A stretch of 64,000 nucleotides of DNA from Octopus vulgaris (Eukaryota): positions 74,710,001-74,774,000 of the forward strand of contig OX597814.1 of NCBI GenBank assembly GCA_951406725.2, written 5' to 3'. Positions 17,960 to 61,460 of the stretch are shown in pieces (position 1 is the first letter of the stretch; each line of letters opens with the position of its first letter). The notes beneath the pieces are model-generated. The model did no database searches and was not told the DNA's origin. It was given only the letters and a program-made list of their open reading frames with translations. Made by a program: the position numbers and the translations under genes.

Positions 17960-19687
17960 TAATATATATGTGTAATGCAATAAAAAGATCATGTGTAATC
18001 GAAGATGATAATCCGAAAACATTCCAAAATGATAATCCAGGAGATCCTGAGTTGGTAATCGAGAACATAATTGGATATAGATAAAAGCGAGTCTGTCTGT
18101 GTGGCTGTGGTTAAGAATATATTCAAATACATAACAAGTGCGTAGACAATGACAAACACAGTAAGAAGTTTGGCACTGAATGAGTGAAGGAAATATATGT
18201 TGGACTTTTAGGACTTATTTGCTCTTGATCGGAAATTCTAAAAAAAAAAAGCACAGTGATATAGAGAGAGGAGGAATAAAGAGAGAAAATGAGAGAAAAA
18301 ATGGAAAGGTAATTAGTCCATTTGTATTTATGTAGATAGGTATGTCTATGGATTTGGTGAGTGTTTATTACTGGCATTTGTGAATGCGTCAGCGTCAGTA
18401 GTGTGTATATGTTTCCTTTTAATTGTGATAGTGCTTGTGTTTAAGTTGTGTCATAAAAAATAGGTGTGAGTATATGGTTGTATGTATGTGTTTGGCGTGT
18501 TTGCATTTAGCATGTTTGTGTATGTATGTGGGGGGATACTTGTGTCAATATAGATTTTTGTATATGTGTGCATATGGTCGCTTTTGAGCATGTACGAGTA
18601 TCTGTGTGATTTTATAGTATGTAAAGCAGGTCAATGTATACGTGAATGTGTTTGATGTGTATTTAGCGCGTGTGTATGTATACGTGTATCAACAGCAGAT
18701 AAGCAAGAACGTGTTATATTTGTTGAATAGTGATGGTATTAATGTACAATGTATGACAAAGGTAGATGTGCATTTATTTATAATTGTTTATATGCCAGTT
18801 GTAAATGTATTTGCGTGTATGAGAGAGAGAGGAGGCAGAGAAAAAAGAGGGAGAGAGAGGTTTTTGGATTGTGGTAGGTTAGCATGGCAAATTGCGTTTT
18901 CTTAAGTGTGAAGTGTGTATATTTGAAAAAGCGATTAGAAACGGAGCGATTGGTAACAAGGTGACAAGGAAGCTGACAGAAGTGCTGGAAATGGGGGAAG
19001 TAAATACAAACGCAGATGGAAGGGGTTGACAAAGGAAATAAAGGGACTTGAGCTATTCAATGATAATATATGTCACCCCGGAAAAGCCGCATATATGTCG
19101 ACTTCATGGTTCTGTGGTGTGTCCAATACATTAGGAGAAGATCTGACCTGAACATAATGAACGGAAAGATTGGGGTAGTTTTACTTCACAAAGTCACCTC
19201 AGTGATCTATCGATCTATCGTAAAGATTGAGAAAGAAATGGGAAACAGGAGAAGTCAACACAGAAAAATAAAGAAACACAGAGACTGAAACTGCGCTTGC
19301 GCGCTGAATTTTGAAATGTTATAACATATAATAATGAGACACGTGTTATTTGTCTCTGAATTATAAGTTAGTTGTTAAGGCCGGTTACTGATGAGAATTC
19401 GCCTAGCAAATTATCTTATTTGCTAAAGAAATTTGAAACCTAGGTATAACCGCAAAAAATAACAAGGTAAAAGTTTTTATTTTTCATTTCCTTCGAAAAT
19501 TGCTATAAAATGTGGCTTTGGTCGTTTTGGCTGCTTCTTCTAGCGTGTAAAAATGACCTGTTAAAGGGTAGTTTTCTTTTGTGCTTAAATGTACACTATT
19601 TTATATACATACATACATACATACATACATACTCGGTTTCACGGGGAAAGAGCAAACTTAGAAATACATACATATATATATATATAT

Positions 19688-32907: not shown

Positions 32908-32990
32908 TTCTCGACATATGTTTCGAAGACAGCAAATTCTTAATTCCGAAGGAATAAAGGGTGCATTATGCCGCCTTCTCATCAGGAAAG
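32908..32990 (-). ncRNA. Type I hammerhead with extended stem II
   Basis: rc TTTC-CTGATGA-GAAGGCGGCA-(34 nt)-TGCTGTCTTC-GAAAC-ATAT-GTC-GAGA. 10-bp stem II, palindromic stem III, GUC triplet. Confidence 0.8.
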
Positions 32991-33564: not shown

Positions 33565-34600
33565 TCATTCATATGAGTGGTAGGTGTGTTTCTGCCAGTG
33601 CATGCACCTATAGGATTTTTCTACCATTGTGTTTACTAAAGGGAATTTGGCGAAAAGTATATAGAAAAGCTCGGAATTACAAACGGCACAATATTTCCTG
33701 CCCTTATCAAAAGGAAAGGATACAGACAATATAGACCATTCCAGCTTGAAAGTTATATTGCTGTCCTTAAGACGCAAAACTAATTTACTTAGTCCTGTAC
33801 TTTGTTGTTTCCTCTTATCTCGGAAAGTTGAATAATGATTGGAAATCCTCTGGGATAATTTAGAAGTAGTCGCCCCAACATAGAAGAAGACACCGGTACC
33901 GGAAGAAACCTTACACTGGTAAATGGAATTTCTAATTTTGGAATTACTGGACAAGAACTTTAATCTGTTAGGGTTTACCTCCGAGACTAAGACGGAGTTT
34001 TTATTGTTATGATTGCTGTTAATATAACTGCTAGCACTGACCACTATACTATTTCTATTATTGTTATTATTAATTGTACTATCGCCGGTAATATCCCTGA
34101 CTATAGAAATGCTGCCGTTGTTATCATCAATACTACCACTGTTATTAGAAATGCTATCGTTGTTACCACTAACACTACCACTGTTAATAATCCGACTAAT
34201 ATTATTATTAATATTACCACTGTTGATGCCAACGCTGTTATGAATGTTGCTATTATCAATACTATTTCTATTATTATTATTGTATGTTTGGTTGGAATTG
34301 GTAAGAATAGTGTTGTAACTCCCAGGTGAAGAATCCTTGTTTAGCAGCTTGTTATTATGGGAGGCAATAATTTGCGATAGATTTCTAGTGTTAGAGAATG
34401 CAATCCTTACCTTATGCGAATTGATAGTAGAGTAATACCTAGAATTCCTGGGAAAGTTCCTAGCTACGGCTTCACGGAACTGCAAAGGAAGGTTTGACTT
34501 GATTTGTTTTCCGAAAGGTATGACAAACCAGATATAGTTTTTAGTGGACTTAGAATTGTTCAAAGTGTTACCAGTTGCATTAAAGGGAATATTTCTGTGC
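33565..34600 (-). pseudogene. Open C-terminal part of PLE polyprotein (GIY-YIG endonuclease)
   Basis: Homologous to the C-terminal half of the 896-aa ORF. The ATG-proximal residues are an artefact of the inverted duplication. Confidence 0.8.
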
Positions 34601-34994
34601 TGGAAAATTGGGATTGGTTGCCGATTGCCTCCCCTGGTCCGTAAATTATTTTTCTTAAGTATAGTGGTGCCTACGTTGTTAGAGCACAGAAATATTCCCT
34701 TTAATGTAACTGGTAACACTTTGAACAATTCTAAGTCCACTAAAAACTATATCTGAGTCATAGAAGCCAGAGCATGAGCCTTTAGGTGCAAACCTTTGTT
34801 AGATCCATGAGTGTAAATCCTTACGTGCAATCCTGCGTATATCCATGTGGATTAACTCGGGGAAGTCCCAGAAACGGCTGTAAGATTTTGAATTTCTTCC
34901 TATAATAATATTTGTATATGACTTGAGATGTTTGCCTTGCCTTAACGTTTGCTGTCCTGTTTAACAATTATATATAAATATATGTATATATATA

Positions 34995-35840
34995 TATTTT
35001 GTATTTTTATATATATTTTTTATACATAAATTATTGCGGCGTAACGTACACCTTGTTCTCTTATATGTATGTAAGCATTCCCCTAAACTTTGTACGACTA
35101 CCACACACACTTTCTCTATACTTCACTGGTCTCTGTCTTTCTCTTTTTTCGCCTCTTTGATTCTTTGGTCTCCTCTTCCCCCACTCTCTCACATTTCTCT
35201 GCCTTTCTCACTTTGCACCTCACTGACCCTGCCTTTCTTTTGTCCCGTCAATACTTGGCACGCTCTCTTTCTTCTCCCCTCCTTAATTCCTTCTTTCTCT
35301 CTCTTCTCCCCCTCCTTGGTGCCTTTTTCTCTCTCTTCTCCCTCTCTTTGATTCCTTTGCCCCCTTTTTTCTCTCTCTTCTCTTCTCACGTGACCGACGG
35401 TCAACTATAGCCTTTCGGCTTCTGAGAACCGCCACGACAACATCGATTTTTTCGTCTGCCATAAGGCATTATTTTTCGAATATGCCAGCTAAGTTGAACT
35501 GTCTCAAGTCGAAAGACGCCTGTTGTTTTTGTCCTGTTATTATTATTATTATTGTTTTTTGTATATTCGTTTTTTGTATTTATATTCGTGTGGCATCGTT
35601 TTTCTGTCCTTGTTTCGTATACATACGATCTTTTTTCCAAGAAATCTAATGCTCGTAGCTTAGTTTTTCCTTGGGGCTGGCCGGATCGGAGCGATCTCAG
35701 GATTAATCAGCCGAAATTGCGAGGATGATCCGGTTCTTGGCTGAAGATTAGAGGCTTCGAATGACCCGTCCGTTTTTTGTGTCGTCTATTTGAATGTTTT
35801 GCGTTCTTGTCCCATTTTGTATTTTTATATATATTATTTA
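34995..35840 (+). mobile_element. PLE 3'-UTR/pLTR-like repeat with permuted HHR-like motif (copy 3)
   Basis: Bounded by the direct repeat TTTGTATTTTTATATATATT, pyrimidine-rich tract, sits between TA tracts. Confidence 0.55.
35680..35756 (+). ncRNA. Candidate non-circularly permuted hammerhead, copy 3
   Basis: GCCGGATC..GCGA-T-C-TCAGGA-TTAATC-AGCC-GAAA-TTGC..GATCCGGT-TCTTGG-CTGAAGA-TTAGA-GGCT. Confidence 0.6.
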
Positions 35841-35859
35841 TACACACACACACACACAC

Positions 35860-36095: not shown

Positions 36096-36285
36096 GCCAT
36101 GATAGATCGTTAGCTACTACACACATTTTTTCTCTCCTTGTTTTTTCTGTGTACCTTTCTGTAGAAGAGTGTAGGCTCGATACGTAAAAGACTTTTTCTA
36201 TTCCTGAGCGCTATACTAATACATCTGTTTGTTTTGTACACCACCTGTCTTCGTCTTTTGTTTATTTTCGTAAACTTTCCCTTTA
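36095..36285 (+). mobile_element. Short PLE pLTR-like repeat with a degenerate minimal HHR (36155-36190), inserted in (TA)n
   Basis: CTTT-CTGTAGA-A-GAGT..GCTC-GATAC-GTA-AAAG. Downstream TTCCTGAGCG..TACTAATAC is shared with 31060-31090. Confidence 0.65.
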
Positions 36286-37316: not shown

Positions 37317-37407
37317 TTTTAGTACGATCGTTTCATACAAGGACAGGTTTTATTAAAAGTTGCAAAAATTACAGCATATAAACGTGTCCCGTACTCATCA
37401 GCTAAAA
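37317..37407 (-). ncRNA. Type I hammerhead with extended stem II (3' pLTR, sense to ORF)
   Basis: Reverse complement of the motif at 41940-42030. Confidence 0.8.
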
Positions 37408-38961: not shown

Positions 38962-41652
38962 TCATTTAAAATATTTTAAAGTCTTCAATTTAGCGTGGAC
39001 ACAAACTTGACCTAGCTCGATATGGTTATTCAATAGGTTTCTATGTTTTCTATGCTTTAGAATTTCATATGTCTCCATGGAGCATAGTTGGCAACCAACC
39101 CTACTATTTTTATACGGAATTGCTCTCCTAACTATTTCCCAATTAAGGTTATAATTTTTATTATTATTTTTGAGTTCCCAGATTTTGTTTGAAAGTGTGG
39201 TGGTACCAGCTTTATGACGTAATTTAAAAGTCGAGATGTGATTTCTAACTCTAGCTAAAAAATTTATTGTACATCCAATGTAATGATATTTGTTATTCTC
39301 CGTGGATATGGTACATTTATAGATTACATTATTTTCTCCACATAGACCAGGTGCCGGGCATTTTGATTTTATTCTACACTTACACACAGGAGGAACACCT
39401 TCAGGCTTTGGATTATTCTTGGGTAGATGTTTTAGGTTCCTATTATTTTGATTATCATTTCTATAGTTGGTGCTGATATCTAAAGTATTGCTATTATTTC
39501 TTGATCCTTCTGTTTCATTATTTAGATCTAAAGTCCTACCATGATTTCTTATATTATTGGTAATGTTAATATTATTGCTAGTCTTTTTATCCGACTGCAT
39601 ATTGTTGTTATAGATATCACTAATATTTTCATTCTCCTTATTTTCTCTATTTTCGCTATTTCTATTATTTCTATTATTAACATTATTACTTCTACTAATA
39701 TCGGCATTGCTATTATTACTATTAATGTTAATGTTATTAGTCATTCTGTGGTTACTAATTTCACCTATGTTTTGATAGTTACTATTGCTGCTTTTATTGT
39801 TGGTAGTATTATTACAATTGCTATTGGTATTCATGCTGATATTATTATTATTATTATTATTATTATTTATATTTCTATCTTTCCTGGCTAGTTTAATGTT
39901 GTTATTATTAATCTTAGCTATTAAAGTGGACATATTTGGGAGGGTTGAATAAGAAATCCTAACTGTTTTCCTAGAAATAATTCTATGATATCTATGAGAG
40001 ATAGGGAAATTTTTTTCCAGAATCACTTTGAATTTGTTCCGTATATCCGATTGTATCGCACAGTTGAACGGAATATTCAGCCATAATATATCTTTTTTAT
40101 TAAATTTAGGGTTCGTAGAATTATTACTATTCATCTCACCGGAGTTATTGTATTTGTTACCATTATTATTATTTTTATTTGTGTGTATCTTAGGTTTATC
40201 TACTTCAATACTATCCGAGTTACCTATGTTCTGGTCAATGTTTCTATTTGAATTGTTGGGCCTATACGCTATATTAGCGTTTACCATTATTTTAATTCTA
40301 CTTTTATTTCGGGCTTGGTCTTTATTGCTGCTTACGTGATTATTGATAACTTCATTATTAGGAATACGTGAGTTCCCCTTATCAACGAATGTAATCTTTT
40401 GGTTGTATCCAGCCTTAGTTAACGCCGCATTATAATGCTCAGAATGGGAGTTAAAAATATCCTTATTGGATGATAATTTTGAAATTCTTAATGAAATATT
40501 TCTTACTAGAGATTCTATAATATTTGGGGGATGATTTGATAATTTATTTATGTAATTCGTGATTTCACCTTCCTTTCTAAATGGGTAATGTAATTTGGAG
40601 TTAAGGTCTAGCGTAGTATCTAGGAAATTAACTATTTTAGTGCCCGGTTCATACGTTATACTGAGGTTGAAATCCCTAAAGAACTTATTAATTTTCTTTC
40701 TAATCCTTTCTATAACAGATTTATTATTACTAGGGATAACAAACAGAGCATCATCCCTATATAGACACCCCTGTAATTCTGGGATATCCTTGCTTATGCA
40801 TTTTAATAGATATGCGCCTACTAGGTTGGTTACCTCAGCCGAATCACTGGAACCCATTGGTATATCAAAAAAATTTGGTGTATCTGCTCTAGTCCATAAT
40901 TTATCTTCAAATTCTATAAATGTCTTCCTAGCTAGTAGCACAATATTGATTTCTTCTCTAGATATGAGGGAGCGATTCATGGCAAATATTAGTGATTTGT
41001 TGAGTAAGATAGGGGAAATGCTAGAGTAATAACTATTAATATCGAACTGAATAAAGGACAGACTACTAGTATTAGTTAGAGACTTAAACCATTTTAGAAC
41101 TTCATCGGTACTTAGCCATAGGTTTAAGGGGAGAAGAGGGGTTATTTGGGGTAGAACAGTATCCAAGATAGATTTACTAAGTCGGCCAATGTCCGACCTA
41201 GTTGGACAGATCAACCTTACCGAAGGGTTTTCCAAGAAGTTCTTTTTGTGGTCTTTAAGATTGATCCTGGGCTCACATGGTTTAAGTGGCTCCGTTCTAT
41301 CCGTTAAATTTAGCTTTTCCATGATCTCTTTCATTTCCAAGTTTACTTTCTTCAAATTAATCCTAGTCGTAATTTTATATTTGGAGTTTAGTTCTTTCCT
41401 AATTAATTTGCTATAAATATCGTAATCAACTCTATACATATTACCCGTTTTATCTGCTGGTACCAGGATTCCATGTTTGCACCGGGTTGACTGAATAAAG
41501 TTCCTAAGGTGTCTAAGGTGAGGGTTATATCTTAACGGGTGTTCCTTGAAGCTAATATCATCTATAAGATTCAGCAAGTCTTTCTCAAAATTCTCCAGGA
41601 ATGGGTTCTGAGGTGGGCTTTTTCTACTTTTAAAAATTCTTCTAAAATTCAT
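38962..41652 (-). CDS. PLE polyprotein: reverse transcriptase plus C-terminal GIY-YIG endonuclease (896 aa; frame stays open upstream to about 41750)
   Basis: PADKT, KDHK..RLICP, FDINSYY, PMGS, YRDD, FLD, CKCRIKSKCPAPGLC, VIYKC..YIGCT, CQLC..CVH. Confidence 0.95.
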   Translation of the reverse strand: MNFRRIFKSRKSPPQNPFLENFEKDLLNLIDDISFKEHPLRYNPHLRHLRNFIQSTRCKHGILVPADKTGNMYRVDYDIYSKLIRKELNSKYKITTRINLKKVNLEMKEIMEKLNLTDRTEPLKPCEPRINLKDHKKNFLENPSVRLICPTRSDIGRLSKSILDTVLPQITPLLPLNLWLSTDEVLKWFKSLTNTSSLSFIQFDINSYYSSISPILLNKSLIFAMNRSLISREEINIVLLARKTFIEFEDKLWTRADTPNFFDIPMGSSDSAEVTNLVGAYLLKCISKDIPELQGCLYRDDALFVIPSNNKSVIERIRKKINKFFRDFNLSITYEPGTKIVNFLDTTLDLNSKLHYPFRKEGEITNYINKLSNHPPNIIESLVRNISLRISKLSSNKDIFNSHSEHYNAALTKAGYNQKITFVDKGNSRIPNNEVINNHVSSNKDQARNKSRIKIMVNANIAYRPNNSNRNIDQNIGNSDSIEVDKPKIHTNKNNNNGNKYNNSGEMNSNNSTNPKFNKKDILWLNIPFNCAIQSDIRNKFKVILEKNFPISHRYHRIISRKTVRISYSTLPNMSTLIAKINNNNIKLARKDRNINNNNNNNNNISMNTNSNCNNTTNNKSSNSNYQNIGEISNHRMTNNININSNNSNADISRSNNVNNRNNRNSENRENKENENISDIYNNNMQSDKKTSNNINITNNIRNHGRTLDLNNETEGSRNNSNTLDISTNYRNDNQNNRNLKHLPKNNPKPEGVPPVCKCRIKSKCPAPGLCGENNVIYKCTISTENNKYHYIGCTINFLARVRNHISTFKLRHKAGTTTLSNKIWELKNNNKNYNLNWEIVRRAIPYKNSRVGCQLCSMETYEILKHRKHRNLLNNHIELGQVCVHAKLKTLKYFK

Positions 41653-41939
41653 TTCGGTATTCCTTTCCTGTGGTTTCTTCTTCTGTTTGACATCAAAATG
41701 GTACGTTTTCCACCTGATTCTTCTGATGAAATCGTTAATCCTATGAATGTGTGATGCTATTAAGACTTTTTTGAAATTCTGTGATGCTATTAAGACTTTT
41801 TTGAAATTCTGTGATAAGACTGTACATCATCTTTAAAGAACTTTAATGAACTTTTGAAATCTGTTTATGTTACTTAATTATCTACATTACTTCATGAGTA
41901 TAGCCTCAACCACTAGGATGTCTAGAGAACTCACATGTA

Positions 41940-42030
41940 TTTTAGCTGATGAGTACGGGACACGTTTATATGCTGTAATTTTTGCAACTTTTAATAAAAC
42001 CTGTCCTTGTATGAAACGATCGTACTAAAA
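41940..42030 (+). ncRNA. Type I hammerhead with extended stem II (inverted 5' pLTR)
   Basis: TTTTAG-CTGATGA-GTACGGGACA..TGTCCTTGTAT-GAAAC-GATC-GTA-CTAAAA. Confidence 0.8.
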
Positions 42031-53659: not shown

Positions 53660-54563
53660 CAATGATGGTTATTGCTGGCATTGGTTAAAGATTCCTGAGG
53701 CAGCAGATGAACTTCCAGCCGTCAAGTTTGTTCCAGCGGTTGAAGCTGGGCGTCCTCTCTCTGATGAAATGGGCTTCTTTTATTCGGAGATTGACTGTGT
53801 CTATTCCTCTTGCCAGTATACGGATAGAGAAATCTCCATCTCAGTGCTAGTGATGCTGGAATACGGCGATGGGTGTTGTGGCTTTGTGGATGTTTTGCTT
53901 TGATGGACACTGGTTCAGACAACATGTGTCCTGTGTATTGTTATTATGGGAGAGGTAGCGTCTGAGGGTGTGGCCTCGCCTCGTGATTCTGGTCGGGAGC
54001 CAGACCTTTTGACGTTGTTCCTTAACTGGTTCTCTACTTGTTCTCCATAGTATGGAAGGTTGACATATATCCATGTTTTATCACTCCGTTCCTCTCTTTC
54101 TCTTTGTCTACTTTCCTCTTTCCTTCCATCGTTGTTGAGGTTGAAGTTATATATGTTATTGTTATTGTGGTCACTGTAGTTGTTGCTGTGACTGCCGCTG
54201 TTGTTGTTCTTTTTCCTCTTTTTCCTCTTCCTGTTCTCACTGCTGCTCTTATTACTATTTGCGTAATCACCTGTCGTCGTTGTCGTTGCTGTGGTCGCTG
54301 ATGCTGTCTTCTTCTCCTTCTTCTTGCAGTGAAAGAGTACAGCGGGGTTCACCCCCCCACCTCTGGAACCTCATTGATCGTCCAAAGAAGGATTATAGAT
54401 CCGAAGGCACTCACATAAGTTATACTCAGCCCAAGACCTAGCAACATGCTATACACAGACCACACGCAACCAGTAAGTCCCATCTATGTATCTATCTGTC
54501 TATTTACCCATCTGCTGTCTTTCTATTTATCTGTCTTCTCTCTGCCTGTTTATCTCTCCATCC

Positions 54564-54626
<63 letters not shown>

Positions 54627-54650
54627 CGTCCGTCTATATGTCTATCCATC

Positions 54651-55691
54651 CTCTCGGGGCGAACCTGGACGTCGACGAGGAGTACCTGACCCGCCTATTC
54701 CAGACGACTTTCGGGCCAGGGCCCATGGACAACTTCCAGAGATCCCTGGCCTGGCAGTGCTACCGAGAAGCGCTACCCGTTCGGGATAAGCTCTACAGAC
54801 ACGGCTCGAGAAACACGGGGCCGACCTGCCCGAGATGCGGTCAGAGCGACGAAACCGTTCTGCACGCACTCGTGCAGTGTCCAACAATTTCCGACCTGTG
54901 GGCTTATGTCGAACAACTGCTGTCACGTGTGGGACGAGTCTGTTTATCAGCTGAGTCTATCGTCAATATTGTCACGCCTCCTTCCTTCAAACGGGAAGGA
55001 AGAGCTATTTTCATCATTCTTGTGGCTATGGCGAAAGAATGTATCTGGTGGACGCGTCTGAAAGGATTGGAGACAAACACTTTCCTCTCTGGTCAATCTC
55101 TCATCAACTTCTTCAAGTACCACTTGAAAAGGAAAGTGAGAGTAGAGAGGCAAGTTTTGTCTAGCGAATGTTTTAAAAAAAGATGGGTGAATGTAGCAAG
55201 GATGGAACGTATGAATGACGAAGCCACCTTGAGCATAATCCTATGAACCCAGAAATTGAAAACAGAGGGTTACCCACTTGCAAACAAATGTGGTAACATA
55301 TAACAATATTGACCAAGGTTACCGTGGTCTTTTTCGTAGGCTTTTCTTCCCACGGATAAACCTTACTTGCTTTCCCCTTTACACCATATATCATAACACT
55401 GTGATACACGATCCCTATTGATCGTTTTTTTCCTCTTCCCCTTTTTTCCCCTTTTTTCTTCTTTTTTCATTTCTCTTTTCTTTTGTTCCTTTTCCTTTTC
55501 TTTTTTTTCTTTTTTATTTTATTTATTTTTTTTGTTCTTTTCTTCCCTTTTACGATCCCTCTTGATCGAAAACCTACGCCACCCCTTTTTTTGTTTCTTT
55601 TGTTTTTTGTTTTTTTCATCCTCCAAAAGAAAAGCTTTACCTTGTAACTTGTCCCATCTGTGTGCAGCCCTGTGTGGCCAATAAAGAAACT
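54651..55691 (+). mobile_element. 5'-truncated Tx1/L1 LINE (ORF2 C-terminal Zn finger plus 3' UTR)
   Basis: LPVRDKL..CPRCGQSDETVLHALVQC, homologous to 60870-61756. AATAAA at the end. Flanked by a 32-bp direct repeat (54619-54650 / 55692-55723). Confidence 0.9.
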
Positions 55692-55723
55692 TATCTATCC
55701 GTCCGTCTATATGTCTATCCATC

Positions 55724-55778
<55 letters not shown>

Positions 55779-55792
55779 CGTCCGTCTATATG

Positions 55793-55891
<99 letters not shown>

Positions 55892-56097
55892 GTTTATTGA
55901 CGGACGTGATGTCAGTTCAGCTCCGAAGGTAATCGTTTATTTTGACTATTTATAGGCCAATTTTTGTGTACATTTTTGCAAATAAGGTGTGTAAGGCAAC
56001 CAACTTTCGTTTGAGTGCTTTTCCAAGGGAGGAATTCGCCCCTAGGGGCAGTTGCAACCCCATTTCATTTCTGTAATTTTCTTCTCGACATTAGAAA

Positions 56098-57978
56098 ATG
56101 TCTAGAAATTTTATTGTAGAACGCTGGTCGCGTTCTTTTATGGAACAACATTTTCCTAGTCTGGAAATGATAGAGAAAAAAAAGAACGTACGCACGGAAA
56201 GTGCAAATATAAATATCGGTAAAATGAACGCTGCAACCACGTGCGATAACAGCCCTGTCACCACCGCTACCACCACCACTAACAACAGCAACCACGAGAC
56301 TACTACTGCTACCACCACCACCTCCACCACCACTACCACGACCAACATAAATGATAAAAATAAAACTCGCACGAAAACTATTGACAAAAACAACAGCAAC
56401 AACAAGAACAACAATAAAAATGAACTATCTAATAGTGAAGATGTTAATACAAAAAATCAACAACAGTAAATTTCGCGGACACTCTTCGCCAGAAGAAGGA
56501 AATAGTAACATTCACAAATGAAGAGCTCATAGAAACAAGAGCTCTCTTTACAACCCGTGGACAAGATTTAGTGCTGCATACACCTCAACACATAAAGCAA
56601 GAAATAGAAAATAAGACAATTGTATATAAAATTATTAGAAAAAACAAAAAACTAAATGAACAGATTACAAAAACTGATGTGGAAAAATGTTTAAAAAACA
56701 TAATGAAAGAAAAAGAGTATATAAACTGGGGTTCCCAGTTTAACACAGTAGTGGTCCGCTTCCCTAACCAGGAAGTGGCAAAAGCTCACTCTACTGAGTC
56801 TCTGGGAAATGATGAAATCATCATGGTCCCATACTACAAAAACCAGAGTGAGTCGAATCACAATTAAAAATGTACCTCCTGAGCTTCCTAACAAATGGAT
56901 AACAGGGGCAATCTGTTACCATTTAAAAAATATTAATATTTTGGAGACCGCCGTGTACCCTGGCGACATTTGGGGTGGGAAGACAATAGTGGTGACCATC
57001 CAGATTGAGGGGGCTTCTATCGAGAGCCTACCGGATAAGATCCACTTGGAGAATGGGCAATGCCTATATGTTGTGGCAGAAAGCAAAAAGCCTAGATGCT
57101 ACAAATGTGGCAGCCCCGAACATTTGATTGCCAAGTGCGATCTGGTACAGAAAAAACAAGAAAGAACAAATCAGAAAACAAATAAAATCCCTTTGTTGCC
57201 AACACCAACACCAACACCAACACACTCAATTATGGAACAATGCCAAGAAAAACAACAAACCAGCAAACAAACCCCAACATCACCAAGAAAAGAAACAGTA
57301 CCAACACAATCACCGATGACGTCACAACCAATTAAACATGTTGAATCAACAAAAAATAGACCCACACCCACACCCAGGACGACAATTAAAAAGACAGAAA
57401 ACACTGACGAGAAGACAAATGCTACCCCTAACACCACAACAACACAAACATCGCACAAAACATCAACAATTTATACAAGCATACATAGTAATGCAAATGT
57501 TTTGCCTCTACCCCATACTGATACGTCGGACGACGAAAGTTCGACGGAATGGCAAATAGCCACAGGGGGTAAAAGAAAAAGATCCAAAAAATCCACCAAA
57601 CAAGGAAGTAAAGCAGGGAGATATCTAACTCAGGACAACATCCCCCTAGACAATCAAAAAAGTAATGAACCCGTAAAACCACACACACAACTAACTGCAA
57701 TAGACACAGACAATAAAGAATTAATGGACTACATCAAATCTAACATGGTCATCTGTGAAGATAACTTTAAGACAAACAATCATCCGCACACCACACCACC
57801 GAAACACATCAGAATTTTACACATAACACAAGCACAACACCACATACTGAAAACAATATTTCCGAATGCAGTAGGCGGGTATCAACGATACCTGTCGAAA
57901 AAACTATACAAACACCTCATCAAAAACAATACAAAAGAAGAAGAAGAAAAAAATGAAACTTTTAAAATGCGTAAGTGA
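56098..57978 (+). pseudogene. Tx1 ORF1 (gag-like, CCHC zinc knuckle), disrupted
   Basis: Pieces 56098..56469, 56571..56867 and 56809..57978. RITIKNVPPEL and CYKCGSPEHLIAKC. Confidence 0.8.
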
Positions 57979-58035
57979 CCTCACTTCTTGTCTCTTGTCT
58001 CTTCTAATATAGTGTGTAAAACACAATTTTCGTAA

Positions 58036-61000
58036 ATGTCAAGTATGCTTAAATTAGGTTGTGTGAATGCGTGTGGCTTGGCGTCGGCTTGGAAGCAAGG
58101 TTACCTTCTAAACGACATCAAGTCACTGGACGTGGATATAGTAGCTATCAGTGAAACCAGACTCAGTAAACCGTGGGCCCTCGAGTCCATGTTTGGCAAT
58201 CAATTTGACATTTATTTTTCTCCCTGTCTGCCGAACATGGGTGGTGGAGGTACTGCGGTGCTTTTTCGAAAGAGTCTAAAGGTAAAAGTAAGAGCAATAT
58301 TCCTAGACCCGGAGGGTGGCTGGTTGTCTTGGACGTGGATGGCAGAAATGGATGTGTATTCCGTCTGATGGCAGTTTATGCACCGTCCTTAACGGGTCGG
58401 GCGGATTTCTTCAGACGTCTAGAGGTTTTCCTGGGTACGTCTAGACCTTTACTGTTAGTAGGGGATTGGAACGCTACCTTGGACACGCATCTAGATTATG
58501 TGGGAAGGGATAGGAATAGAAGGGGGTGTAAGAGCCTCAAAGACCTGCTCAGACGTTTCCATTTGTCTGACAAGTTCCGACTCGACCATCCGAACGTGCC
58601 AACGTGGACTTGGACAAACCGCGTCGGATCGTCGAGATCTTATCTAGATAGAATTCTATGCAGGACAGCGGATAGGGATAGTGTAGGATGTCCACAACTT
58701 AAAATAGTCAGCTACACAGATCACAAATTTGTTACGTGTACGCTCGACTTAGATAAAACACATAGGCAGGGTCCCGGTTACTGGAAACTGAACACGTCGC
58801 TGTTAGCGCGACAGGTTTACAGGATCCGGATTAGCGAGTTAATTAAGAGGGCGCTGACGGGAGCCGTCGTTAACAACCGCTGGTGGTACGCCCTGAAAAT
58901 GGCAATAAAATCGGAATCAATTAGGTTTAGCAAGGAATTAGCGATAGAACGAAATAGAGTAGAGGGAGACTTAGTTAAGAAACTAGAAGAGGCACTTACC
59001 ACTGGCAGCGCAACCAACGTGCTGGCTGCGAGGATGGCCCTCGACCAACACCTCAACGCCAAGCACGAAGGTTGCGTCGTCAGAGCTAAAATGCGTGCCT
59101 TAAGGAACGAAGGGATTGAAGCTGCGCGAGAGGCCCGGGTAGCGGAGGCGCAGCGTGGCAACAGAGCCACCATTCGGTCTCTAATAGATCAACAGGGATG
59201 CAGTTTACTCGAACCCGAAAGGATGTGTGAGGCCTTTCAACAGCACTTTTCTCGACTGTTTGGTGCGAGTGGTGGGTCGGAACGCGGGATGGATTTCAGT
59301 GCCTACCTGACCGACCTGCCGCGGCTCTCGGCAAGAGAAGCGGAGTGTTGTGAAAGTCCCATCACAGCCGCTGATGTGTGGGATGCGATGGCGGGCTGCG
59401 CGAGGGTTTGGATGGTTTACCCTACGAGCTGTATTGTCGAATGCCAGACTTGTTTGGCGACCTATTGGCATCAGTCTACTGCAACTGGCAACAAAACGGG
59501 AGAATCCCCGGTTTCGTGAGCCGAGGTGCAGTGACGTTGCTGAAGAAAGACCCAAACAAGGGGAATTTTATAGATAATTTCAGGCCCATCACTCTGCTCA
59601 ACGCAGATTTGAAAATTTTGGCCAAAGTAATAGCCGAGAGGTTGGCGCTTGTCATTGGTAAACTGGTCGACAGGGCGCAAACATGCGCCGTGCCGGGCAG
59701 AACCAGACATGACAACTTCCATCTGATGCGCTACATTGTGGACAGGGTAGTTAAGGATCCTGGCATGGGTGGGGCGCTGATAAATTTGGATCAGTCTAAA
59801 GCCTTCGATAGGGTCGACCATCGGTACTTGGCGGCCGTCCTCAGGGCGGCTGGCTTCGGTCCCGTCTTCCGCGGTTGGATCGCTGCCTTATATAGCGGCA
59901 TCCGATCGGTGATTCGGGTGAACGGTCACCTGTCGAAACCGTTTGACATCACGCGTTCGGTCCGTCAGGGGTGTCCCCTGTCGGCGCTTCTGTATGTATT
60001 GACTCTCGAGCCGCTACGGCGGAAGCTGGCGACACTGAGGGGCATCCCACGGGAACTGGGTTGCGGGACGAGCGTGTCGGCATATGCGGACGATGTCACC
60101 GTCATAGTGTCGAGCGACAAACACATCAAGATGATAGGCGAGACACTAAGAAAATATGAAACGGTGACAGGAGCAAAGATTAACCCGGAAAAGTCAGTGG
60201 GTTTGCTACTCGGCACCTGGAGAAGCAAGCCCATGCCGTCCGACTGCGGCTCAGTAGTGGGACGCTGGACGGACGGACGGTTAAATTGCTCGGGGTCTGG
60301 TTCAGTCCGAACCTCCAAATGGATAAGAACTGGGATGAGATCACGAGTAGAGTGGTCGCTCTCAGCCAAACATGGGCCGAGAGAAAGCTGTCTCTAAAAG
60401 GCCGGGCGGAGGTGGCGAACGCGTACATCGCATCCGTCATCGATTACCGCCTGACAGTCGTACCTTGTCCCGACGCCACCATCACCAAACTGGAACGCAT
60501 ACTCTTCCTCTTCCTGTGGAAGGGTGGCGTTCCGATGGTGAGGAAGTCCATTTGCTGTCAACATCCGTTGAATGGAGGACTGGGCATGCCGTGGTTGATG
60601 ATGCACAGGCATGCGCTGAGACTGCGACATCTCTGGAAATTCATCGACGACGGTGAACAGGTGTGGGCGCCGTTTGTGAGGCGCGACTTCCCGCAGCTCG
60701 TCTCACTGACCGAACTGCAAACGTGGATCAAAAAGAGACCGAAACTGGGCGATTGGCACCGAGAGTGTCGCCAAGCTCTACAGCAGCTCTGCCGACCGGG
60801 GTCAAACTTGTGCAACTTACAAACGACTAAAGCGTTCTATAGAGGACTAGTGGAGAGGAGGTCCGACGACACACTCGGGGCGTCGACGAGGAATTCCTAA
60901 CCCGCCTGTTCAGGACGACGTTCGGGCCGGGGCCTATGGATAACTTCCAGAAATCCCTGGCTTAGCAGTGCTATCGAGACGCACTACCTGTTCGAGAGAA

Positions 61001-61460
61001 GAGCTACAGACACGGTTCGAAAACCATCACCGGACCGACCTGCCCGAGATGCGGTCAGAGCGACGAAACCGTTCTGCACGCACTCGTGCAGTGTCCAGAT
61101 ATCTCAGAGCTGTGGTCCTTCGTCGAACAGCTGTTGTCACGTGTAGGTCAGGCTCGCCTATCGGCCGAGTCTATCGTGAATATTGTTCCACCACCTTCCT
61201 TTAAACGGGAAGGGAAAACCGTTTTCGTTACGCTGATGGCTATGGCAAAAGAATGTGTGTGGTGGACGCGTTTGAAAGGACTGCAAACAAACACCTTCTT
61301 CTCTGGTCAGTCTCTCGTCAACTTTTTCAAGTACCACTTGAAAAGGAGGATGAGAATAGAGAGGAAGGCTTTGTCGAACGAATGTTTTAATAAAAAGTGG
61401 GTAAAAGTGGCAAAAATGGTCAGTATGAAAGACGACACTATTTCAAGCATAAATCTGTAA
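58036..61460 (+). pseudogene. Tx1 ORF2 (APE endonuclease, RT, C-terminal Zn finger), frameshifted
   Basis: NACGL, ISET, VYAP, GDWN, YLDRI, TDH; FRPITLLNAD, DQSKAFDRV, VRQGCPLS, YADD; CPRC..H...C. Split across at least five ORFs. Confidence 0.93.

Follow-up and report, generated by a model that had tools for sequence, protein, structure and literature searches.

A probable split-core hammerhead ribozyme, opened between A9 and G10.1, in Penelope-like repeat families of Octopus vulgaris

A 64,000-nt stretch of the Octopus vulgaris genome (assembly GCA_951406725.2, contig OX597814.1, positions 74,710,001 to 74,774,000, forward strand), hereafter the window, carries a motif that resembles a hammerhead ribozyme with its parts in an unusual order. 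This raises the question of whether the motif is a real ribozyme fold, which strands form its stem II and what kind of element carries it. An initial annotation, made from the letters alone, had described an upstream hairpin, a helix termed P0 and stems I, II and III around the core, and regarded the locus as the third member of a structural class. All of the pieces that it named are in place, including GAAA at 35713, CTGAAGA at 35741, AGCC at 35709 with GGCT at 35753, and the pair GATTA/TAATC, and a descriptor confirms a hammerhead-type core in a non-circular order of cut-site block, GAAA block and CUGANGA block. The observation is partly confirmed and its interpretation partly supported. The RNA of the family is quite probably, on the sequence evidence, a split-core hammerhead of the Penelope-like elements (PLEs) that either still is or once was active, and the finding concerns the repeat family, not the single copy in the window.

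The motif lies in family B, a repeat for which a search of the 2.8-Gb genome gave 3,214 candidates; the top 40, not counting the window copy itself, are at 96–98% identity. A 24-mer of the family has 2,308 exact genome matches and its reversed control has 0; a tail anchor has 2,991 matches and brought in older subfamilies. The unit contains no long open reading frame. Its 3′ end is fixed and lies in (TA)n or (CA)n, its 5′ truncation is variable, and the copies form partial head-to-tail tandems, some with inverted 5′ pieces; head-to-tail joints are present in contigs of public sequencing runs too. Such tandem, truncation and target features are hallmarks of PLEs in the available text of PMC8557442, and with all of them family B has the make-up of a non-autonomous PLE, so the Penelope-like carrier proposed initially is borne out. 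The two other copies annotated in the window belong to family A, a second non-coding tandem family with 3,077 candidates and no significant similarity to family B over the motif. One of the two, at 3925..4050, reads AAAA in place of GAAA and has compensatory changes in P0 and stem I. Further families, C and F among them, emerged from flanking DNA through a descriptor that asked for the core and stems I and III only, without stem II, and three were taken up (1,425, 550 and 2,778 candidates); family G was picked after the layout had been seen in a published consensus and is not an independent test. The same layout recurs in families of unrelated sequence, as the initial annotation had argued. 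The cleavage triplet is AUC in family B, GUU in A, AUA in D and F and GUA in C and G; AUC is nearly absent among natural hammerheads according to the available text of PMC1636495.

Across 57 family B copies that span the motif and were chosen regardless of their core, CUGANGA, GAAA and NUH are nearly fixed, and only N7 varies (A in 36, G in 20). In stem I, 306 of 321 cells are paired, and two compensatory positions show A-U/G-C and A-U/U-A swaps; for stem III the figure is 263 of 273. P0 and the upstream hairpin, here H1, are conserved as initially described: H1, found at this place in all six families, is paired in 249 of 258 cells, and P0 in 382 of 432, with G-C/A-U and C-G/U-A/U-G variants at two compensatory positions, one of which is A.C in 28 copies. 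A further potential hairpin at the 3′ side, H2, is not universal among the repeat families. P0 alone is weak evidence, because 17 of the 27 bare S-G-C cores matched in shuffled sequence carry a P0 of at least 5 bp; the full corrected descriptor matches the window twice and none of 500 dinucleotide shuffles, a search of 64 Mb over both strands. A reading of the core as CUGA-AGAUUA-GA, with a long N7, was rejected since G35746 and A35747 are fixed and the bases after them vary. Rfam returned three weak unrelated matches at the locus and no ribozyme family; a scan of the window likewise gave none there among the 150 of 161 matches listed, its hits being microsatellite-driven miRNA noise. The absence of a hammerhead match is expected for a pseudoknotted order.

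Stem II is where our reading departs from the initial annotation, which had paired the strand before GAAA with a GGCT lying downstream after a 5-nt insert. The strand before GAAA stands, and its true partner appears to be the upstream GGCTG. This upstream helix, GGCTG/CAGCC, is paired in 251 of 265 cells of the 57 copies and is invariant within family B; its covariation is between families only. It comprises 5–6 Watson–Crick pairs with G10.1-C11.1 and is perfect in five of the six families, namely A (GAAGG/CCTTC), B, C (GGCCCC/GGGGCC), F (GAGCAA/TTGCTC) and G (GACACC/GGTGTC); in family D it is imperfect, with one bulge, and a 2-bp GG stands directly after A9. Over the first five stem II positions of the six families, 27 of 30 are paired, a value that 2 of 720 strand swaps match. 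No downstream partner is shared over the families, the best being 1 bp in family C and 3–5 bp at offsets 1–6 elsewhere. An ordinary type-SGC hammerhead built on the downstream helix would draw on four Watson–Crick pairs (−8.3 kcal/mol) in the youngest subfamily, on a possible 4-bp G-U-rich stem after one extra base in family A and on the end of a spider element of the Naiad type, which by eye is apparently a true SGC form, but only 171 of 212 cells of that helix are paired: 18 copies have C.A at the pair nearest the core, and 14 a mismatch at the one after it. These failures follow subfamilies, whole subfamilies lacking GGCT and reading AAACT, and are not scattered decay. In family C there is no partner downstream. 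The upstream helix surpasses the downstream one in length and strength (−10.9) and is common to five of the six families, and in its available text Eckert et al. 2023 (PMC10085705) knew no insertion of more than 1–2 nt here. We consider the ordinary form very improbable. The proposed conserved off-state, GATTA paired with TAATC, did not hold up either, with 223 of 268 cells paired, one pair A.A in 24 copies and failure again by subfamily. The motif has the marks of a hammerhead in its core with a variable N7, in stems I and III in register and in a stem II closed by G10.1-C11.1 (imperfect in D), and departs from them in that the 10.x strand does not lie 0–2 nt after A9, the downstream partner being unconserved.

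Table 1. Features of the motif and its carriers in the window.
Feature	Position	Strand	Remarks
Family B unit	34996..35844	+	Non-coding tandem repeat, ~810 nt plus short terminal repeat
Family B terminal repeat	34996-35036 = 35801-35844		
S-G-C hammerhead core	35691-35747	+	A-C-B in the initial annotation
Hairpin H1	35637..35674	+	CCAAG 35637/CTTGG 35670; adjoins G10.1
Stem II, 10.x strand GGCTG	35675..35679	+	G10.1 = 35675; detached from A9
P0, 5′ strand	35680..35687	+	P0 bridges the distal ends of stems II and I
Stem III, 5′ strand, with U16.1 (35695) and C17 (35696)	35691..35696	+	
Predicted cut	35696/35697		AUC triplet 35694-96
Stem I, 5′ strand	35697..35702	+	G35700 rare, A in family B
Stem II, 11.x strand CAGCC	35708-35712	+	Within 35708..35720
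G12-A13-A14-A15.1, then stem III, 3′ strand	35713-16, then from 35717 to 35720	+	
P0, 3′ strand	35727-34	+	
Stem I, 3′ strand	35735-40	+	G35740 rare, A in family B
C3-U4-G5-A6-N7-G8-A9	35741..35747	+	
Variable 3′ segment	35748..35781	+	Potential own hairpin H2; contains GGCT, stem II of the initial annotation
Family A copy (copy 1)	600..730	+	Same layout; GUU triplet 649-651; stem II GAAGG 625-629/CCTTC; predicted cut 651/652
Diverged family A relative (copy 2)	3925..4050	-	

We infer the three-dimensional fold, catalysis, RT donor and evolutionary route of the family as follows. The RNA would fold as a hammerhead of the non-circularly permuted class, being a circular permutant of the SGC/CSG/GCS group with its chain opened between A9 and G10.1. 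From its 5′ end the chain would run through H1, the stem II 10.x strand, P0, stem III, the cut site, stem I and a linker, and then through the stem II 11.x strand, GAAA and the returning strands of stem III, P0 and stem I, in that order, to CUGANGA. P0 and stem III would form a nested rod, which is the predicted fold of the family majority, and stems I and II would then close as pseudoknots, as covariation suggests, juxtaposing A9 at the 3′ end with G10.1 at the 5′ end. P0, by bridging the far ends of the 10.x strand and of the 2.x strand of stem I, would fill the role of the stem I/II interaction helix described by Eckert et al. A break at this junction seems plausible because natural hammerheads tolerate extra nucleotides between A9 and G10.1 (available text of PMC3705267 and PMC4209133); stacking of H1 on G10.1-C11.1, in competition with the A9.G12 pair, could count against it. 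The layout may have originated by tandem duplication of a CSG ribozyme, with the 10.x strand taken from one copy and the 3′ stem I strand and CUGANGA from the next. Family C loci (L387-L406, at ~1510-1560) contain a second CTGAAGA shortly before G10.1, with H1 in between; it may be a remnant of the block C that stood upstream in an ancestor of type CSG.

The copy in the window is itself slightly decayed. It differs from the family B majority over the motif by two A-to-G changes, at 35700 and 35740, positions that are ~99% A in four public sequencing runs, and the changes both turn two stem I pairs into G-U and complete a rival hairpin. With nested folding only, the predicted pair probabilities are 0.78 for the rival hairpin and 0.2 for P0/III in the window copy, and 0.0 and 0.83/0.82, respectively, for the family B majority. 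Dominance of a simple hairpin, a danger that the initial annotation had itself raised, is accordingly predicted for the window copy but not for the family. The central C-G pair of the hairpin is C.A in 50 of 54 copies, which makes the hairpin specific to the G35740 of the window copy. The two rare substitutions, by favouring the rival hairpin, have probably crippled this copy, as far as folding predictions go. The minimum free energy of the whole region has a z-score of −0.57, a value that is uninformative for a pseudoknot and dominated by the window copy's rival hairpin.

Retroelement copies could preserve a trace of cleavage in their 5′ ends. The transcript would likely be cut after C35696, the position that the initial annotation had also predicted from the core, and a Penelope-like RT, presumably supplied in trans, would copy from the fixed 3′ end near 35844 toward the cut end. 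Roughly one in four to one in three of the copies reaching this end would stop there and join a (TA)n target at the first TA inside. We mapped 5′ ends in copies chosen by a downstream anchor only. For family B we used 92 copies from the first 100 matches listed, leaving aside the window copy and the last 7; of the 62 copies at risk, 14 end in the 15 nt after the predicted cut, compared with 30 of 664 in 12 other bins (corrected P 7e-6), and in a second set anchored inside the motif 9 of 30 end there, two of them exactly at 35697 (L103, L110). For family A, represented by 68 distinct copies from 70 loci, the window's own included, 19 of 51 end in the 15 nt after the predicted cut against 23 of 643 elsewhere (corrected P 8e-14); two listed places that were skipped (L063, L066) both read through and would make the denominator 53. 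In the next bin downstream 8 of 59 family A copies end, the background is ~4% per bin, and in the 30 nt before the cut 3 of 48 copies end in B and 3 of 32 in A. The pile-up is as expected if the RNA template is cleaved at the predicted site. Most of these ends lie 5–14 nt inside the predicted cut, at the first TA, and not on the cut itself, so linking cut to end needs a trimming step; such an offset agrees with a short flap being lost as the copy joins a (TA)n target. We rejected an explanation by TA microhomology alone, as other bins that are equally or more TA-rich hold 0–3 ends.

A real but non-catalytic fold, serving as a structural or protein-binding signal, with the pile-up marking a transcription start or an RT stall, would also account for the reading-through of most copies, for the 5–14-nt displacement of most ends downstream of the predicted cut and for a slightly raised number of ends (7 of 74 at 35742-56) where the structure is entered from its 3′ side. 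Against this, the catalytic nucleotides are kept while the stems covary, across unrelated families and phyla. The pile-up is found at an equivalent position, measured from the cut, in two families whose sequences are unrelated, lies where an RT would already have unwound the helices and falls off immediately before the cut. Explaining this coincidence between the two families by a transcription start or an RT stall is less economical, and we regard the non-catalytic reading as unlikely. Work on the Poseidon PLE hammerhead weighs against function here, in that the available text of PMC11167929 describes that ribozyme as dispensable in vitro, with no RNA-seq ends at its cut.

The ribozyme could alternatively work only in multimers or circles, through a CSG-type fold in which one unit supplies the 3′ stem I strand and CUGANGA, the next supplies the 10.x strand, cut site and GAAA, and the rest of the unit is inserted at A9/G10.1, or it could need the protein of the element. 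The head-to-tail tandems, the CSG folds of nematode Naiads (by eye, from published consensus sequences) and the possible dimeric or protein-assisted action of PLE hammerheads (available text of PMC11167929 and PMC4209133) agree with such an arrangement, but one unit contains all the partners within 75 nt, minimum-energy folding is predicted to give the local P0/III rod and short single-unit copies start at the cut too, which makes this arrangement quite improbable. We therefore retain the single-unit, split-core hammerhead as the best explanation.

Three non-circularly permuted hammerhead types, SGC (HRIMA-1), CSG and GCS, are described in the available text of Eckert et al. 2023 (PMC10085705), so the S-G-C order is not itself new, whereas the opening at A9/G10.1 apparently is. 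As far as that text goes, the octopus motif shares with the SGC type its cyclic block order, a full core, a helix that connects stems I and II at their distal ends and a short link, of 3 nt in family A and 5 nt in family B, from stem I to the 11.x strand. Its linear order is likewise S, G, C, but block C is not intact and the second strand of the interaction helix does not lie 3′ of stem II, the 10.x strand and that helix strand both being at the 5′ end. Eckert et al. assume that CUGAnGA and its adjacent paired strands cannot be interrupted, whereas here the 10.x strand stands at the 5′ end, and unlike in their types all three inter-block links are present and the ends fall at A9/G10.1. They list SGC only in metatranscriptomes, CSG only in metagenomes and a single weak bacterial GCS candidate; here the form resides in an animal genome in thousands of copies.

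The setting is also that of the PLE pseudo-LTR hammerheads and non-LTR retrozymes (available text of PMC4209133 and bioRxiv 10.64898/2026.07.22.740005), with a ribozyme near the 3′ end of a PLE-like, tandem, non-coding unit of a few hundred nucleotides, a conserved G10.1-C11.1 pair and tolerance of an extra base at 9/10.1. Those hammerheads are of type I (C-G-S), often minimal and dimeric, whereas the octopus units each hold, in place of a type I hammerhead, a multiply pseudoknotted split-core form that has stems I, II and III in full within a single unit. Within the literature covered, mostly openly available papers, we found no hammerhead opened at A9/G10.1 and, in the same scope, no permuted hammerhead in Naiads; the available text of PMC13725137, PMC11662667, PMC10162972 and PMC6765202 describes no split-core hammerhead.

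Naiads are PLEs that, in the available text of Craig et al. 2021 (PMC8557442), are without a canonical hammerhead and carry 'HHR_core' or 'HHR_half_core' flags that fit no descriptor, the octopus Naiad included. They share with the families described here their (TA)n targets, partial tandems, inverted 5′ pieces and short tail. We surveyed by eye the last 300–500 nt of 52 of the 54 S5 consensus sequences of that study (4_Dst and Cmel left out), a span in which motifs lying farther upstream would escape notice, and 8 of the 52 ends clearly have the split-core layout: Bfor, Amil, Anas, Aacu, 2_Movir, Plae, Obim and Ovul, from a ctenophore, corals, a box jellyfish, an acanthocephalan and octopus. 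Stem I is 2 bp in Bfor, stems I and II have one mismatch each in Aacu, and Esco is imperfect. Six of the eight nematode ends have a long interaction helix and are of type CSG; the spider end, Smim, is of type SGC. The octopus Naiad consensus ends carry the exact layout, and the motif of our family is likely one form of the ribozyme reported missing from Naiads. At the same place, the ends of bivalve, hemichordate and some hydrozoan Naiads, as represented by the surveyed consensus sequences, have motifs that look HDV-like, and those of 1_Movir and 4_Chem have putative twister-like ones. Together, these sequence motifs suggest that Naiads may need some self-cleaver at that end.

Within this genome, 538 sites match a 23-nt stretch of the octopus Naiad motif, the stem I of family A is common to the octopus Naiad, and at locus L297 a Naiad-type RT fragment is followed, on its own strand, by the family G motif. 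The motif occurs within the flank at at least 3 of 30 Naiad-RT loci, where it sits near the flank edge and copies are decayed, and at 0 of 30 Neptune-endonuclease loci was it present downstream within the flank. The link to a Naiad-type RT exists for family G only. Family B itself has no N-terminal GIY-YIG and Naiad-type RT and is non-coding; a comparison of units A and B with 80 Naiad or Neptune loci gave no element-level similarity beyond nested copies, the ribozyme layout alone being shared, and our search for the RT donor of families A and B did not find one. Close copy pairs on C1 yielded no autonomous element, 20 further RT-like loci no new family, and four PLE ORF pieces no Pfam match. 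Neptune-like RT fragments beside family B (L104/L105 on the opposite strand, L107 on the same strand) were set aside as they look like nested insertions. A nearly identical pair of open RT + GIY-YIG frames of 750–780 aa, at L385 (1276–3620, +) and L386, represents a young PLE family.

The window contains other elements of this general kind. A 954-codon PLE-like open frame (38965-41826, −), resembling the Hydra clade by eye and without a Pfam match, is flanked by identical canonical type I hammerheads in opposite orientation (41943-42027, + and 37320-37404, −). Another frame, of 393 codons (33568-34746, −), has an Asn/Ser-rich stretch together with a GIY-YIG-like end and is followed by a type I hammerhead (32910-32988, −), and a canonical-order (type I) hammerhead candidate lies at 19385-19449 (+). 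Just downstream of the family B copy, a Neptune-like 3′ end with a decayed canonical hammerhead (36098-36285, +) is similar to the Neptune tail in L339. A LINE-like element, judged by eye, with endonuclease and RT frames occupies 54419-61457 (+), with a second copy of its C-terminal part upstream.

On balance, we think it more likely than not that Naiad-type PLEs and their non-coding passengers, from ctenophores to octopuses, carry active permuted hammerheads in CSG, SGC and A9/G10.1 openings, and that the 5′ ends of their copies record cleavage in vivo. If so, the scheme of six permutations, which has been treated as the full set, would be incomplete, as the layout lies outside it and breaks a block assumed to be indivisible, and RNA switches would gain a new scaffold in a hammerhead whose chain enters at the core. 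Non-circular permutations would move from metatranscriptome and metagenome contigs into animal chromosomes, where permuted folds would be abundant, in thousands of copies. The pile-up of 5′ ends would be a read-out of cleavage during retrotransposition obtained from sequence alone, and would bear on the role of ribozymes in PLEs. For the Naiads, finally, the split-core fold offers a possible answer to the puzzle of their 'half cores' and missing ribozymes: they would not be without ribozymes at all.
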